From an uncultured Rhodobacteraceae bacterium (GTDB taxonomy: Bacteria; Pseudomonadota; Alphaproteobacteria; Rhodobacterales; Rhodobacteraceae), in contig CALMSR010000040.1 of NCBI GenBank assembly GCA_937872465.1, forward strand, positions 78,279 through 142,278: a stretch of 64,000 nucleotides of DNA. The letters are read 5' to 3'. The position numbers and the translations under genes are program-made. The first letter of the stretch is position 1, and every line of letters begins with the position of its first letter. Under the pieces are notes generated by a model. The model was not told the DNA's origin. It saw only the letters and a program-made list of their open reading frames with translations, and searched no databases. Of this stretch, positions 37,608-48,233 are shown piece after piece.

Positions 37608-39128
37608 TCAGGCACTCGCCTCGCTCGACCCCTTCATCTTCCGCCGGATGACGCCGAAGAGCGGCAGGAGGATCAGGATGATCGCGATCACCGTGATCGT
37701 GCCCGCGATCGGCCGCGTGAAGAAGATCGACGGATCGCCGGAGGACAGGAGCAGCGACTGGCGCAGCGTGGGCTCGGCGATCGGGCCGAGCACGATGGCG
37801 AGCACGGCCGGGGCCAGCGGGTAGTCGAACTTGCGCAGGAAGAACGCGCTCAGCCCGAAGATCAGCATCAGCCAGACGTCGTGCATGTCGTTGGTGGCCG
37901 CATAGCCGCCGACCACCGAGAGCACGAAGATCATCGGTGCGAGGATGGTGAAGGGCATGCGCAGCATCCAGATGAAGAGCGGGATGAAGCTGAGGTTGAT
38001 GACGAGCGCGAAGAAGTTCGACACGTAGAACGAGCCGATCAGCCCCCAGACGAATTCGGGCTGGTCGGTGAAGAGCCGCGGGCCGGGGGTCAGGCCCCAG
38101 ATCACCATGCCGCCGAGCAGGATCGCCGTGGTGGGCGAGCCGGGAATGCCCAGGGTCAGCATGGGCAGCATCGAGCCGGTGGAGGCGGAATTGTTGGCCG
38201 CTTCCGGCGCCGCGACGCCGTCGGGGTTGCCCCTTCCGTAGGAATCCGGGTCGCGGCCGGTCATCTTGGCCACGCCATAGGCCATCAGCGACCCGGGCGT
38301 CGCGCCGGCGGCGGGAAGGATGCCGACGAAGAAGCCGAGGCCCGAGCCGATCGACATGCCCTTCCAGGCCTTGGCGAAGCATTCCCGCGTGTCCGCGACG
38401 ATGCCGGCGAAGGTCATCCGCGCCTCGGTGCTGGTGATCTTTCCGCGCGTGGTGTCGAGCGTCCAGAGCATCTCGCCGATGCCGTAGACGCCGATGGCGA
38501 GCACCAGGAAGTTGATCCCGTGCAGGAAGCCGGAGATGCCGAAGAAGACCAGCCGCGGCGCGCCGGAGATCTGGTCGAAGCCGACCGAGGCGAAGACCAG
38601 GCCGAGGCAGATCGACAGCACGGTCTTGGGGATGTCGTCGCCGCCGAGGCCGACGAAGGTGGCGAAGGCGAGCAGCATCAGCGCGAAGATCTCCGGCGGC
38701 CCGAAGCTGAGCGCGACATGCGCGAGCGGCGGCGCGAAGGCGGTGAAGAGGATGATGGAGACCGTCCCGCCGACGAAGGAGGCGATCGCGGCGGTCACCA
38801 GCGCGAGGCTGGCGCGGCCCTTGAGCGCCAGCGGCCGCCCGTCGAAGGTCGTGGCGACCGCCGTAGAGGCGCCCGGGATGCCGAGGGTGATCGAGCTGAT
38901 CGCGCCGCCGTACATCGCCCCGTAATAGATCGCCGCGAGGAAGATGATCGCCGAGGCCGGCGGCACCAGGAAGGTGATCGGCAAAAGGATCGCCACGCCG
39001 TTCACCGAACCGAGCCCGGGCATCGCGCCGATGAAGAGGCCCAGCGTCACGCCGACCACGATCAGCGCGATGTTCATCGGCTGGATCGCGAGAAACAGGC
39101 CGTGGCTGAGAAGTTCCAGAATTTCCAT
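37608..39128 (-). CDS. tctA: Tripartite tricarboxylate transporter large permease TctA
   Basis: GAMPGLGS, YYGAMYGG, AAPEAANNS, LTLGIPGS, GLTPGP. Confidence 0.93.
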   Translation of the reverse strand: MEILELLSHGLFLAIQPMNIALIVVGVTLGLFIGAMPGLGSVNGVAILLPITFLVPPASAIIFLAAIYYGAMYGGAISSITLGIPGASTAVATTFDGRPLALKGRASLALVTAAIASFVGGTVSIILFTAFAPPLAHVALSFGPPEIFALMLLAFATFVGLGGDDIPKTVLSICLGLVFASVGFDQISGAPRLVFFGISGFLHGINFLVLAIGVYGIGEMLWTLDTTRGKITSTEARMTFAGIVADTRECFAKAWKGMSIGSGLGFFVGILPAAGATPGSLMAYGVAKMTGRDPDSYGRGNPDGVAAPEAANNSASTGSMLPMLTLGIPGSPTTAILLGGMVIWGLTPGPRLFTDQPEFVWGLIGSFYVSNFFALVINLSFIPLFIWMLRMPFTILAPMIFVLSVVGGYAATNDMHDVWLMLIFGLSAFFLRKFDYPLAPAVLAIVLGPIAEPTLRQSLLLSSGDPSIFFTRPIAGTITVIAIILILLPLFGVIRRKMKGSSEASA

Positions 39129-39175
39129 GGTTCAGGACTCCACTCTCGGGTCCGCGGACCGACCGCTGCTCGGGG

Positions 39176-39679
39176 TCAGTAGATGATGTCGTAGAGCACG
39201 TTGAAGACCGGGTCGGTGAAGCTCATCCCCTTGGGCAGGGTGATCCGCATCAGCGCCTCGAAGAAGAAGAAGAACACGATCGGCGTCGCGATCGAGATGG
39301 TCAGTGCCAGCCAGAGCGCGTGGCGTCCGAGGAACCAGAGGTAGTAGAACAGGAACAGCGCCATGGCGCCGTAGATCGAGATGACGTCGATCAGCGCCAC
39401 GAAGACGAAGATGCCGCCGCCGACCTGCAGCAGCATCCTGCGGCCGTCGGCGTCGAGCACCGGCTCGGTGGAGCGGGAAGGCGGAGAGGTCCGCCTTGCC
39501 CAGTTGAAGGCGATCACGATCGTGCAGACGAGCATGATGGCCGAGAGCCAGAACGGCCAGGCTCCGCCTCCCGGACCTTTGCCTGCGACATAGCCGATGT
39601 TCAGATCGGTACTCTTCCACATCATGTAGATGGACAGGGCGGCCAGGACAGCGGCCGTGACGATTTCGCCAAGTCTCAT
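39176..39679 (-). CDS. tctB: Tripartite tricarboxylate transporter small permease TctB
   Basis: Four TM helices, GPGGGAWPFW, located between tctC and tctA. Confidence 0.85.
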   Translation of the reverse strand: MRLGEIVTAAVLAALSIYMMWKSTDLNIGYVAGKGPGGGAWPFWLSAIMLVCTIVIAFNWARRTSPPSRSTEPVLDADGRRMLLQVGGGIFVFVALIDVISIYGAMALFLFYYLWFLGRHALWLALTISIATPIVFFFFFEALMRITLPKGMSFTDPVFNVLYDIIY

Positions 39680-39721
39680 TCTGGCCTCCCAGAAGTACTT
39701 CTGAAAATCGGTTCCGGAGAT

Positions 39722-45621: not shown

Positions 45622-45664
45622 GTCGTGCTCCCTTCGATGCTTGATGGAATGAAGCAGGTGCCAA

Positions 45665-47410
45665 TCATTTCCTGGAAACGACGCTCTGCGGGTTGAGATT
45701 GCCGATGCGGCCGCTCTCGGTGCCGGCGGCGGGATCGATCACGGCGTTGATCAGGGTCGGCCGGCCGGAATCCATCGCCTCGTTCACGGCGCGGCGAAGC
45801 TCGTCGGGCGAGGTGGCGTTGACGCCGACGCCGCCGAAGGCCTCCATCATCCGGTCGTAGCGCGCGCCCGGGACGAAGACCGTGGTCGCCGCATCGGGGC
45901 CGCCCGAGGGATTGACGTCGGTGCCGCGGTAGATGCCGCCGTTGTTGAACACCACGACGCAGACCGGCAGGCGGTAGCGGCAGATCGTCTCGACCTCCAT
46001 GCCCGAGAAGCCGAAGGCGCTGTCGCCTTCGACCGCCAGCACCGGCTGGCCGGTCTCGATCGCGGCGGCGATGGCGGTGCCCATGCCGACGCCCATCACC
46101 CCCCAGGTGCCGACGTCGAGGCGCTTCCGGGGCCGGTACATGTCGATGATCGAGCGGGCGAAATCGAGCGTGTTGGCGCCTTCGTTGACGAGAATCGCCT
46201 CGGGCCGTTCCTTGATGATCGTGCGCAGCGCGCCCAGCGCCCCGTGGAAGTCCATCGGCACGTTGTTGTTCTGGAGCCGCGGCGCCATCCTGGCGACATT
46301 GGCCTCGCATTTCGCGCGGATCGCCTCGGTCCATTCCGCCGGCGGCCTGGCCCAGCCATCGCCCATCGCGTCGAGCAGCGCCGAGAGGCAGGAGGCGATG
46401 TCCCCGACCAGCGGGCCGGCGACGGGCAGGTTGCTATCCATCTCCTTCGGGTCGATGTCGATCTGGACGAAGGTCTTCGAGCCGGGCGCGCCCCATTGCT
46501 TGCCCTTGCCGTGCGACAGCAGCCAGTTCAGCCTGGCGCCGATCAGCATCACGGTGTCCGCTTCCTTCAGGGCCAGCGACCGCGCCGCGCCGGCGTATTG
46601 CGGATGCGTGTCCGGCAGGAGGCCCTTGGCCATGCTCATCGCGATATAGGGGATACCGGTCTTCTCGACGAAGCCGCGCACCAGATCGTCGGCCTGGGCA
46701 TAGGCCGCGCCCTTGCCGAGGATGATCAGGGGCTTCCTGGCCTTGCCGAGGATGTCGAGCGCCCGCTGGACCGCCGCGGGTGCGGGGAATTGCGCCGGCG
46801 CCGGATCGACCACCTCGACGAGCGAGGCGGCGCCCTCGGCGGCATCGATCGCCTGGCCGAGCAGCTTGGCGGGGAGGTCCAGATAGACGCCGCCCGGACG
46901 GCCGGAGAGCGCGGCGCGGATCGCCCGCGCCACGGCGATTCCGATGTCCTCGGCGTGCAGCACCCGGTACGCGGCCTTGCAGAGCGGCCTGGCGACGGCG
47001 AGCTGGTCCAGCTCCTCGTAGTCGCCCTGCTGGAGATCGACGACCTCACGCTCGGACGAGCCGCTGATCAGGATCATCGGCCAGCAGTTCGTCGTCGCAT
47101 GGGCGAGCGCGGTCAGCCCGTTCAGGAAACCCGGCGCGGAGACCGTGAGGCAGACCCCGGGCCGCCTGGTGAGGTAGCCCGCGATGGCGGCGGCATTCCC
47201 GGCGTTCTGCTCGTGCCGGAAAGAGATGACCCGCATCCCCTCCGCCTGCGCCATGCGGCCCAGGTCGGTGATCGGGATCCCCGGCACGCCGTAGATCGTG
47301 GTGATGCCGTTGAGCTTCAGCGCATCGATCACCAGGTGGAATCCGTCGGTCAGCTGGCCGGCCTCCGGTGCGGTTTCTTCGGTCGAGGGTGCGGTGCCGA
47401 ACGGCGCCAT
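45665..47410 (-). CDS. oxc: Oxalyl-CoA decarboxylase (ThDP)
   Basis: [55 protein letters not shown]...NNGG. Confidence 0.96.
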
Positions 47411-47516
47411 GTCAGTTCTCCTTGCTGCGGCCCGGGCGATTGCCGGCGTGCGCCGGACGATCCGCTCCGGCCGCCGTGGCCCTTTGCTCTCGTGTTCCGT
47501 GCACCGAGGCCGCCAT

Positions 47517-48233
47517 TCAGAGGGAGTCCGCCGTCGACTGGTTGATGCCCTCGAAGCGGGTCCAGGTGCGCCGGACATGATCGTGTAGCCGCATAGTGTG
47601 CTCGCGGACCAGACGCGACGCGCGGTCGGCGTCGCGTCGCTCCAGGGCTTCGATGATTTCCATGTGATCGACCACCGAGCGGCTGGCGCGATTGCCCTCG
47701 CCCATCGCCCGCCGCCGGACCGCATGCATATGCGCAAAGAGCGTATCGGCCGTGGTCTTGAGCAGCTTGCAGCCCGAGAGTTCGAGAATCCGCTGGTGAA
47801 ACCGGATGTTGGCGTCGGAATATTCCTCGAGCTCCGCCCGTTCGGCATCGGCGCTGTGCTTGACCGCGAACCTTCGGAGCTGCCGGAAATCCGCGTCGCT
47901 CGCCGCCTGGGTCGCCATCCGCGCCGCCATGCTCTCCAGCGCCGCCCAGGTCACCACCATCTCGAGAATCTCGTCGCGGGACTTGCGCTGGACGAAGACG
48001 CCCTTGCGCGGGAGAATCACGACGAGGCCCTCCTGCGCCAGCCGGGCCAGCGCCTCGCGAATCGGCGTGCGGGAGACCGCGAGCTGCTCGGCGAGCTTCC
48101 TCTCGTCCAGCCGGAGGTCGACGCCCGGCTGATAGATGTTCATCTTCAGGATGGCTTCGCGCAGGACCCCATAGATGTGGTCCTTCAGAGAGAAATTCTC
48201 CGAGATCGGACTGAGCGCATCCGTCAAGGACAT
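47517..48233 (-). CDS. GntR/FadR family regulator (probable oxalate regulon)
   Basis: [27 protein letters not shown] domain NIRFH...HMEIIEAL. Confidence 0.9.

Follow-up and report, generated by a model that had tools for sequence, protein, structure and literature searches.

How does oxalate enter a cell whose oxalate operon ends in the genes of a tripartite tricarboxylate transporter (TTT)? The question is raised by a 64,000-nucleotide stretch of the genome of an uncultured Rhodobacteraceae bacterium (contig CALMSR010000040.1, positions 78,279 to 142,278; hereafter the window), in which nine co-directional genes occupy the minus strand from 48233 to 37608 in the order gntR-oxc-frc-fmtX-fhs-usp-tctC-tctB-tctA. 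A first-pass annotation of this DNA had given the same single-strand order, with fmtX as 'X', and our gene calls bear it out, all nine genes lying head to tail at the coordinates given below. The core of that annotation was the proposal that oxalate is taken up by TctCBA. At the level of sequence, this proposal is now supported by synteny across several bacterial families, by a second oxalate-activating context in which the transporter genes recur, and by an operator common to the gntR promoter and tctC. TctCBA is probably the oxalate importer of the operon, an assignment that is well supported in silico.

OxlT is named as the oxalate transporter in reviews and surveys (PMC13409138, PMC11461619). 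oxlT has been reported in only two aerobic strains, the Oxc proteins of marine Alphaproteobacteria form a group of their own, and oxlT is rare relative to frc and oxc in hydrothermal-plume metatranscriptomes (PMC10192776). A review of TTT systems makes no mention of oxalate (PMC5812351), and our literature searches on oxalate transport found no paper connecting TTT, TctC or Bug proteins with oxalate.

The nine genes and their products

The G+C content of the window is about 70%, and genes were therefore called by combining third-position GC, start-codon context and Pfam matches. From the promoter-proximal to the distal end, the operon consists of the following genes:

47517..48233, minus strand: gntR, regulator with a GntR winged helix-turn-helix (wHTH) and an FCD domain, 238 aa (Pfam PF00392 and PF07729)
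45665..47410, minus strand: oxc, oxalyl-CoA decarboxylase, 581 aa (NF006721, TIGR03254)
44347..45621, minus strand: frc, formyl-CoA:oxalate CoA-transferase, 424 aa (TIGR03253)
43372..44289, minus strand: fmtX, stand-alone protein of the formyltransferase fold, 305 aa (Pfam Formyl_trans_N and Formyl_trans_C)
41675..43342, minus strand: fhs, formate--tetrahydrofolate ligase, 555 aa (NF010030; Pfam FTHFS, full length)
40804..41661, minus strand: usp, tandem universal stress protein (USP) with a GTG start, 285 aa (Pfam Usp PF00582, two stretches)
39722..40690, minus strand: tctC, periplasmic TTT solute-binding protein and predicted oxalate receptor, 322 aa (Pfam PF03401)
39176..39679, minus strand: tctB, small TTT membrane subunit, 167 aa (Pfam PF07331)
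37608..39128, minus strand: tctA, large TTT membrane subunit, intact, 506 aa (Pfam PF01970, positions 2-423 of 423)

Gaps of 106, 43, 57, 29, 13, 113, 42 and 47 nt separate these genes from gntR to tctA, and a Shine-Dalgarno-like motif precedes every one of the nine. No riboswitch or other RNA element was found in the operon by Rfam matching at E≤0.1. The sequencing runs that contain this sequence are all DNA metagenomes, from activated sludge and digesters.

The enzymes were assigned at equivalog level by the NCBIfam cut-offs. Oxc scores 1002 bits with NF006721 (cut-off 557) and 991 bits with TIGR03254 (cut-off 739), Frc 696 bits with TIGR03253 (cut-off 504) and Fhs 927 bits with NF010030 (cut-off 652). 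Oxc and Frc are 58% and 60% identical, respectively, to the E. coli K-12 enzymes.

The fmtX product was also considered as a true methionyl-tRNA formyltransferase. This identity was rejected because the protein stays below the Fmt cut-off (134 versus 201 bits) and is better matched by the N-terminal formyl-transfer/hydrolase domains of ALDH1L1 (10-formyl-tetrahydrofolate dehydrogenase), which are its best matches in the PDB (E 7e-53). Its residues H103 and D139 align with His106 and Asp142 of ALDH1L1, which we take to be the catalytic residues. Since the N-terminal domain of ALDH1L1 hands a formyl group to a phosphopantetheine thiol, it is a reasonable hypothesis, by analogy, that FmtX is a transferase acting between formyl-CoA and 10-formyl-tetrahydrofolate (10-formyl-THF). 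FmtX and Fhs together could perhaps supply the formyl-CoA that primes the Frc/Oxc cycle.

The three tct genes are contiguous and provide the three components of a TTT (TC 2.A.80). TctC matches PF03401 with 87.6 bits and begins with a Sec-type signal peptide (...TPASA/WE); TctB matches PF07331 with 61.3 bits, and TctA covers the full PF01970 profile with 474.7 bits, its C-terminus being full length in comparison with its orthologues. An AlphaFold2 model of TctC (pLDDT 75, pTM 0.72) displays the TctC/Bug fold, and the top Foldseek matches of this model, with TM-scores of 0.8-0.9, are 4X9T, TphC, Bug27, AdpC, BugD and MatC.

Conservation of usp-tctCBA in two enzyme contexts

Homologues of TctC number in the thousands, and the best 120 are all at least 76% identical. 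A one-genome-per-species scan with an alignment of these 120 proteins gave 80 loci in which TctC is 73-97% identical, the nearest orthologue (97%) being that of a Rhodovulum sp. metagenome-assembled genome (MAG; locus L001). Gene contexts were counted by tblastn of the nine window proteins in the 59 loci that extend at least 7.6 kb upstream of tctC.

In 43 of these 59 loci, oxc and/or frc are found directly upstream of the tctC module on the same strand. The complete order gntR-oxc-frc-fmtX-fhs-usp is present in 28 of them, the same order without fhs in 11, and minor variants in the rest; fmtX is found in 42 of the 43. The carriers belong to Paracoccaceae, Roseobacteraceae, Stappiaceae, Aurantimonadaceae, Rhodospirillales (BAL199) and the gammaproteobacterial Granulosicoccaceae, and include a Rhizobiaceae MAG and several cultured type strains; cultured carriers are Sedimentitalea arenosa, Paracoccus albicereus TK19116 and Brevirhabdus pacifica DSM 27767. 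Counting both enzyme contexts described here, the module is linked to oxalate-activating enzymes in dozens of bacteria from marine and wastewater habitats. The genes that flank the operon in the window (alcohol dehydrogenase, 2-hydroxyacid dehydrogenase, DctPQM of the TRAP (tripartite ATP-independent periplasmic) type, tetR, Gfo-type oxidoreductase and DUF993) were detected in no locus except the near-identical L001. Since the gene order recurs in 43 of 59 genomes whereas the flanking genes do not, the arrangement is not due to chance, and the operon has been kept as a unit rather than through local phylogenetic inertia.

A second context was found in 11 of the other 16 loci, where usp-tctCBA stands beside genes for an AMP-forming CoA ligase (about 606 aa) and a PanE/ApbA reductase (325 aa); two further loci, cut by contig ends, show the same pair. 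A cultured carrier of this ligase type is Rhodovulum adriaticum DSM 2781. The best PDB relatives of the ligase are oxalate--CoA ligases (Arabidopsis AAE3, 5IE0, with 415 bits and E 5e-123, then 6QJZ and 8AFF), as compared with 210 bits for the next family, malonyl-CoA synthetase. As for the reductase, PanE2 of Methylobacterium extorquens is an oxalyl-CoA reductase (PMC8411744) and has been employed as such (PMC12686821). Because of these two relationships, the ligase/PanE context reads as a putative route from oxalate through oxalyl-CoA to glyoxylate. The sole input common to both enzyme contexts is oxalate, formate occurring only with Frc/Oxc and glyoxylate only with ligase/PanE. In the TctC tree, the ligase-type proteins form one well-supported clade (100/96) within the oxc-type proteins, sister to L033/L050 (99/95). 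This topology indicates a single switch of context, in which usp-tctCBA was retained and the enzymes were exchanged, and it speaks for a tie between the transporter and oxalate.

The transporter might nevertheless carry something else. The import substrate of TctCBA could be another small carboxylate with a link to the pathway (formate, glyoxylate, glycolate or oxamate, for example), with oxalate entering through a carrier encoded elsewhere. TTT binding proteins are diverse and their ligand is not readable from sequence, and the presence of fhs and of formate dehydrogenase (FDH) marks formate as a metabolite of the pathway. However, the ligase/PanE context does not involve formate, nor the Frc/Oxc context glyoxylate, and oxalate alone feeds both. 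Nor was either of the two known types of oxalate-associated carrier seen nearby: with E. coli YhjX (for the OFA family) and YfdV as tblastn queries and a limit of E≤1e-3, the 64-kb window and all 80 loci gave no match. No MFS/MFS_1 protein was found among the larger open reading frames (ORFs) of the window in Pfam scans. These Pfam scans and the YhjX search agree with the first-pass annotation, according to which the window lacks an oxalate:formate antiporter of the major facilitator superfamily (MFS). The only other uptake system of the window is the TRAP transporter DctPQM at 52.7-56.3 kb. Considered as a rival oxalate importer, it was rejected because none of the 80 related loci has an equivalent.

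The linkage itself might also be a historical one, a general-purpose usp-tctCBA having hitch-hiked with the oxalate operon by horizontal transfer, with no specific role in oxalate use. The patchy distribution of the operon across orders and the insertion sequence (IS) that abuts it in the window fit mobility of the whole block, and a few loci have tctCBA with no oxalate genes nearby. Against such hitch-hiking, gene order is maintained down to 73% TctC identity while the flanks differ, and the module was kept through the change of enzymes from Frc/Oxc to ligase/reductase.

Several points weigh against the assignment of oxalate to TctCBA. TctC is only 20-23% identical to the structurally characterised Bug/TctC proteins, and its invariant glycine-rich loops 39-48 and 70-79, expected at the binding site, were modelled with low confidence; for these reasons we make no ligand call from the structure, and the sequence of TctC speaks neither for nor against oxalate as ligand. 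The ligase context arose once, and thus counts as one extra evolutionary event, not as many. Five of the 59 loci (L030, L038, L058, L066 and L067) show neither context. Finally, YhjX is a distant proxy for OxlT in a tblastn search, and oxlT or another carrier could be present elsewhere in this genome.

In the Primorskyibacter sp. S187A locus (L038, positions 4017-7075), usp-tctCBA lies near a divergent GntR/FCD regulator, an FAA-hydrolase-family protein and a family-III CoA-transferase. This CoA-transferase is the best match of all loci to YfdE-like acetyl-CoA:oxalate CoA-transferases (35% identity), and the locus may represent a third oxalate-activating context.

The usp gene belongs to the same module. 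Full-length orthologues lie directly upstream of tctC in 71 loci, usp accompanies tctCBA in both enzyme contexts, and 6 of the 59 loci with sufficient flank lack the gene. The protein has conserved motifs PVRGDG and MGAYG-x9-FGGNTQ, and its C-terminal GAYG-x9-GGNT is a variant of the ATP motif G-2x-G-9x-G(S/T), with G where S/T is expected. By analogy with TeaD, modulation of the transporter by this USP is plausible. A quite different role is also quite possible, although we put it at somewhat under an even chance: the USP would simply be expressed along with the operon and serve in nucleotide binding or the general stress response, for instance in coping with the pH or redox stress of oxalate oxidation. 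Such a role would fit the variant ATP motif, the loci that keep tctCBA without a USP, and the result of sequence searches against PDB chains, TeaD included, in which no solved USP was matched at E≤0.01. It accounts less well for the position of the gene immediately 5' of tctC in 71 loci, and for the observation that the USP follows tctCBA, not the enzymes, when the context changes.

Promoter and operator of the operon

Upstream of gntR, the following two elements overlap:

48303..48330, minus strand: sigma-70-like promoter TTGACC-16-TATGGT, the sole promoter-like site in 37000-48700
48297..48306, minus strand: GntR/FadR-type operator TGGTATGCCA, overlapping the -10 box, with one mismatch to the palindrome TGGTATACCA

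The TTGAC...TATGGT arrangement is kept 5' of gntR in related loci, where the perfect palindrome TGGTATACCA occupies the same position. The gntR product combines a GntR wHTH with an FCD domain, and its own promoter contains a palindromic operator of the form TGGT...ACCA, as expected for the FadR subfamily. Because the only promoter-like site and the operator are placed 5' of gntR, the anatomy of the operon points to one, presumably autoregulated, transcription unit of nine genes. A terminator-like hairpin at 37549-37533 is not claimed as the operon terminator, since it coincides with a terminal repeat of the adjacent IS3 element.

All 44 loci in which gntR occurs with oxc and/or frc have, within 350 nt 5' of gntR, an operator that differs from TGGTATACCA at no more than one position. 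Over 1.40 Mb of sequence from the collected loci, 52 perfect copies of TGGTATACCA were observed against 1.3 expected by chance. Of these copies, 47 are upstream of gntR, 5 are upstream of tctC and none is elsewhere. The tctC-proximal copies comprise one each in L024, L029 and L031, between usp and tctC, and two in L030, at a stand-alone tctCBA with no oxc within 10 kb. The operator of the oxalate operon is thus found at tctC where this gene has an upstream region to itself.

This distribution bears on both alternatives raised above. With an operator common to the gntR-oxc promoter and to tctC alone, import of a carboxylate other than oxalate appears unlikely. A purely historical linkage is more improbable still, and we give it very little credence, as the operator is found at tctC with its own upstream region in L024, L029, L031 and L030. 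Oxalate is thus retained as the probable substrate of TctCBA.

A rearranged operon was observed in Granulosicoccus sp. (L078, positions 10001-19100): the operator separates gntR from a tctC placed upstream of it, and usp-tctB-tctA remain at the 3' end of the operon.

Neighbouring genes, proposed mechanism and known systems

Four other features of the window were examined for their relation to the operon:

48453..48995, plus strand: isochorismatase-family hydrolase, divergent from gntR (Pfam PF00857)
36272..37543, plus strand: IS3-family insertion sequence, the downstream boundary of the operon (rve/HTH_21 transposase, terminal inverted repeats)
22905..25946, minus strand: FDH alpha subunit, molybdopterin and Fe-S (Pfam)
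21771..22817, minus strand: divergent PanE/ApbA-like ORF at the fdh cluster's end (no Pfam match; homologues near the operon)

The isochorismatase-family gene holds the same divergent position in 24 loci, with 72-98% identity. It is probably a regulon neighbour of the operon and may share its regulon, because in many such loci the operator is repeated about 84 nt upstream of the first copy. The IS3 element starts 65 nt beyond the tctA stop codon, replaces about 6 kb that are present in the 97%-identical L001, and is outside the oxalate system.

In 11 related loci, FdhA homologues are encoded no more than 10 kb from the operon, and FDH is probably the sink for oxalate-derived formate. An ORF upstream of the fdh genes (28644-30665, minus strand, about 673 aa) gave no Pfam match. 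The PanE-like ORF has homologues (60-77% identity) beside the operon in 15 loci, of which L006, L063 and L066 have them directly after tctA; the L066 homologue has a weak ApbA match. Between the window ORF and the PanE-type reductase that accompanies the ligase, identity is only 29%. Because its homologues adjoin the oxalate/TTT operon in 15 genomes, it is a candidate for the oxalyl-CoA reductase of an assimilatory branch. The wider island is consistent with a net import of oxalate after which the formate is retained and either oxidised or assimilated. A separate module at 50901-56281, comprising a 2-hydroxyacid dehydrogenase, a second GntR/FCD regulator and TRAP DctPQM, is not conserved with the operon.

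For the ligand, the coupling ion, the effector of GntR and the role of the USP, we infer the following scheme. The GntR/FCD repressor would cover the -10 box by binding TGGTATACCA and come off in response to an effector derived from oxalate. Periplasmic TctC would bind oxalate, possibly as a Mg or Ca complex, and pass it to TctB/TctA, which would import it by ion-coupled symport, and therefore with net uptake of oxalate and no export of formate. In the cytoplasm, Frc would form oxalyl-CoA at the expense of formyl-CoA, and Oxc would convert oxalyl-CoA into formyl-CoA and CO2. The formate released would be retained in the cell and directed to Fhs, yielding 10-formyl-THF, or to the nearby FDH. 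The tandem USP, forming a fixed module with tctCBA, probably modulates the transporter. We consider it likely, taking the explanation as a whole, that the promoter/operator and gntR-oxc-frc-fmtX-fhs-usp-tctCBA form an autoregulated operon for aerobic oxalate use with a TTT as its uptake step.

A more far-reaching synthesis, which we regard as tentative and rather doubtful, would combine several of these elements. usp-tctCBA would be a portable cassette dedicated to oxalate and the first TTT for a C2 dicarboxylate, taking up possibly Mg- or Ca-oxalate and gated by the USP according to energy state; it would underlie a formate-retaining, aerobic oxalotrophy in marine and wastewater Proteobacteria. 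Fhs and FmtX would together connect formate/10-formyl-THF with formyl-CoA by a route driven by ATP, either priming or draining the Frc/Oxc cycle.

Surveys of oxalotrophy rely on oxlT as a transport marker. If TctCBA does import oxalate, the conserved TTT would account for oxalate uptake in Alphaproteobacteria of marine and wastewater habitats, with the formate saved for C1 assimilation or as a source of energy. The TTT family, so far poorly characterised, would gain a new and very small substrate, and the marker set for the oxalate-carbonate pathway would be improved.

Among known systems, the OxlT-Frc-Oxc system of Oxalobacter formigenes has the same enzyme pair, Frc and Oxc being assigned here at equivalog level. 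In O. formigenes, uptake is performed by an MFS antiporter that exchanges oxalate2- for formate- and exports formate for proton-motive force, whereas here the candidate importer is a TTT, formate-consuming genes (fhs and FDH) are linked, and no MFS gene was found in the window or related loci. The acid-resistance locus yfdXWUVE of E. coli (frc-oxc-yfdV-yfdE) likewise unites frc, oxc and a transporter gene in an operon, but its transporter, YfdV, belongs to the AEC family and priming is due to the acetyl-CoA:oxalate transferase YfdE; neither YfdV nor YfdE has a homologue here except Frc itself.

The TctCBA citrate transporter of Salmonella, TphC-TpiBA (terephthalate), AdpC (adipate), MatC (malate) and Bug27/Bug69 (quinolinate) share the architecture and the TctC fold with the system described here. 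Identity to these characterised systems is 20-23%, and the predicted substrate here would be the smallest dicarboxylate. The fixed pairing of a USP gene with a binding-protein-dependent secondary transporter is shared with TeaABC-TeaD of Halomonas elongata; TeaABC is a TRAP system whereas the one described here is a TTT, and the tandem USP has no detectable similarity to solved USPs. M. extorquens (Oxc, Frc, PanE2, FtfL/Fhs) also uses oxalate aerobically, its oxalate uptake being attributed to OxlT-type carriers, and PanE-like genes stand beside the usp-tctCBA module in many loci. No TTT, USP or ALDH1L1-like formyltransferase has been described for its oxalate assimilation. In M. extorquens, formate enters the THF pool and oxalyl-CoA is reduced to glyoxylate (PMC8411744). 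The enzymes of the present operon are thus the textbook Frc/Oxc pair; it differs from the known systems in a TTT for uptake instead of OxlT or YfdV, in the attached USP and in the ALDH1L1-like formyltransferase.

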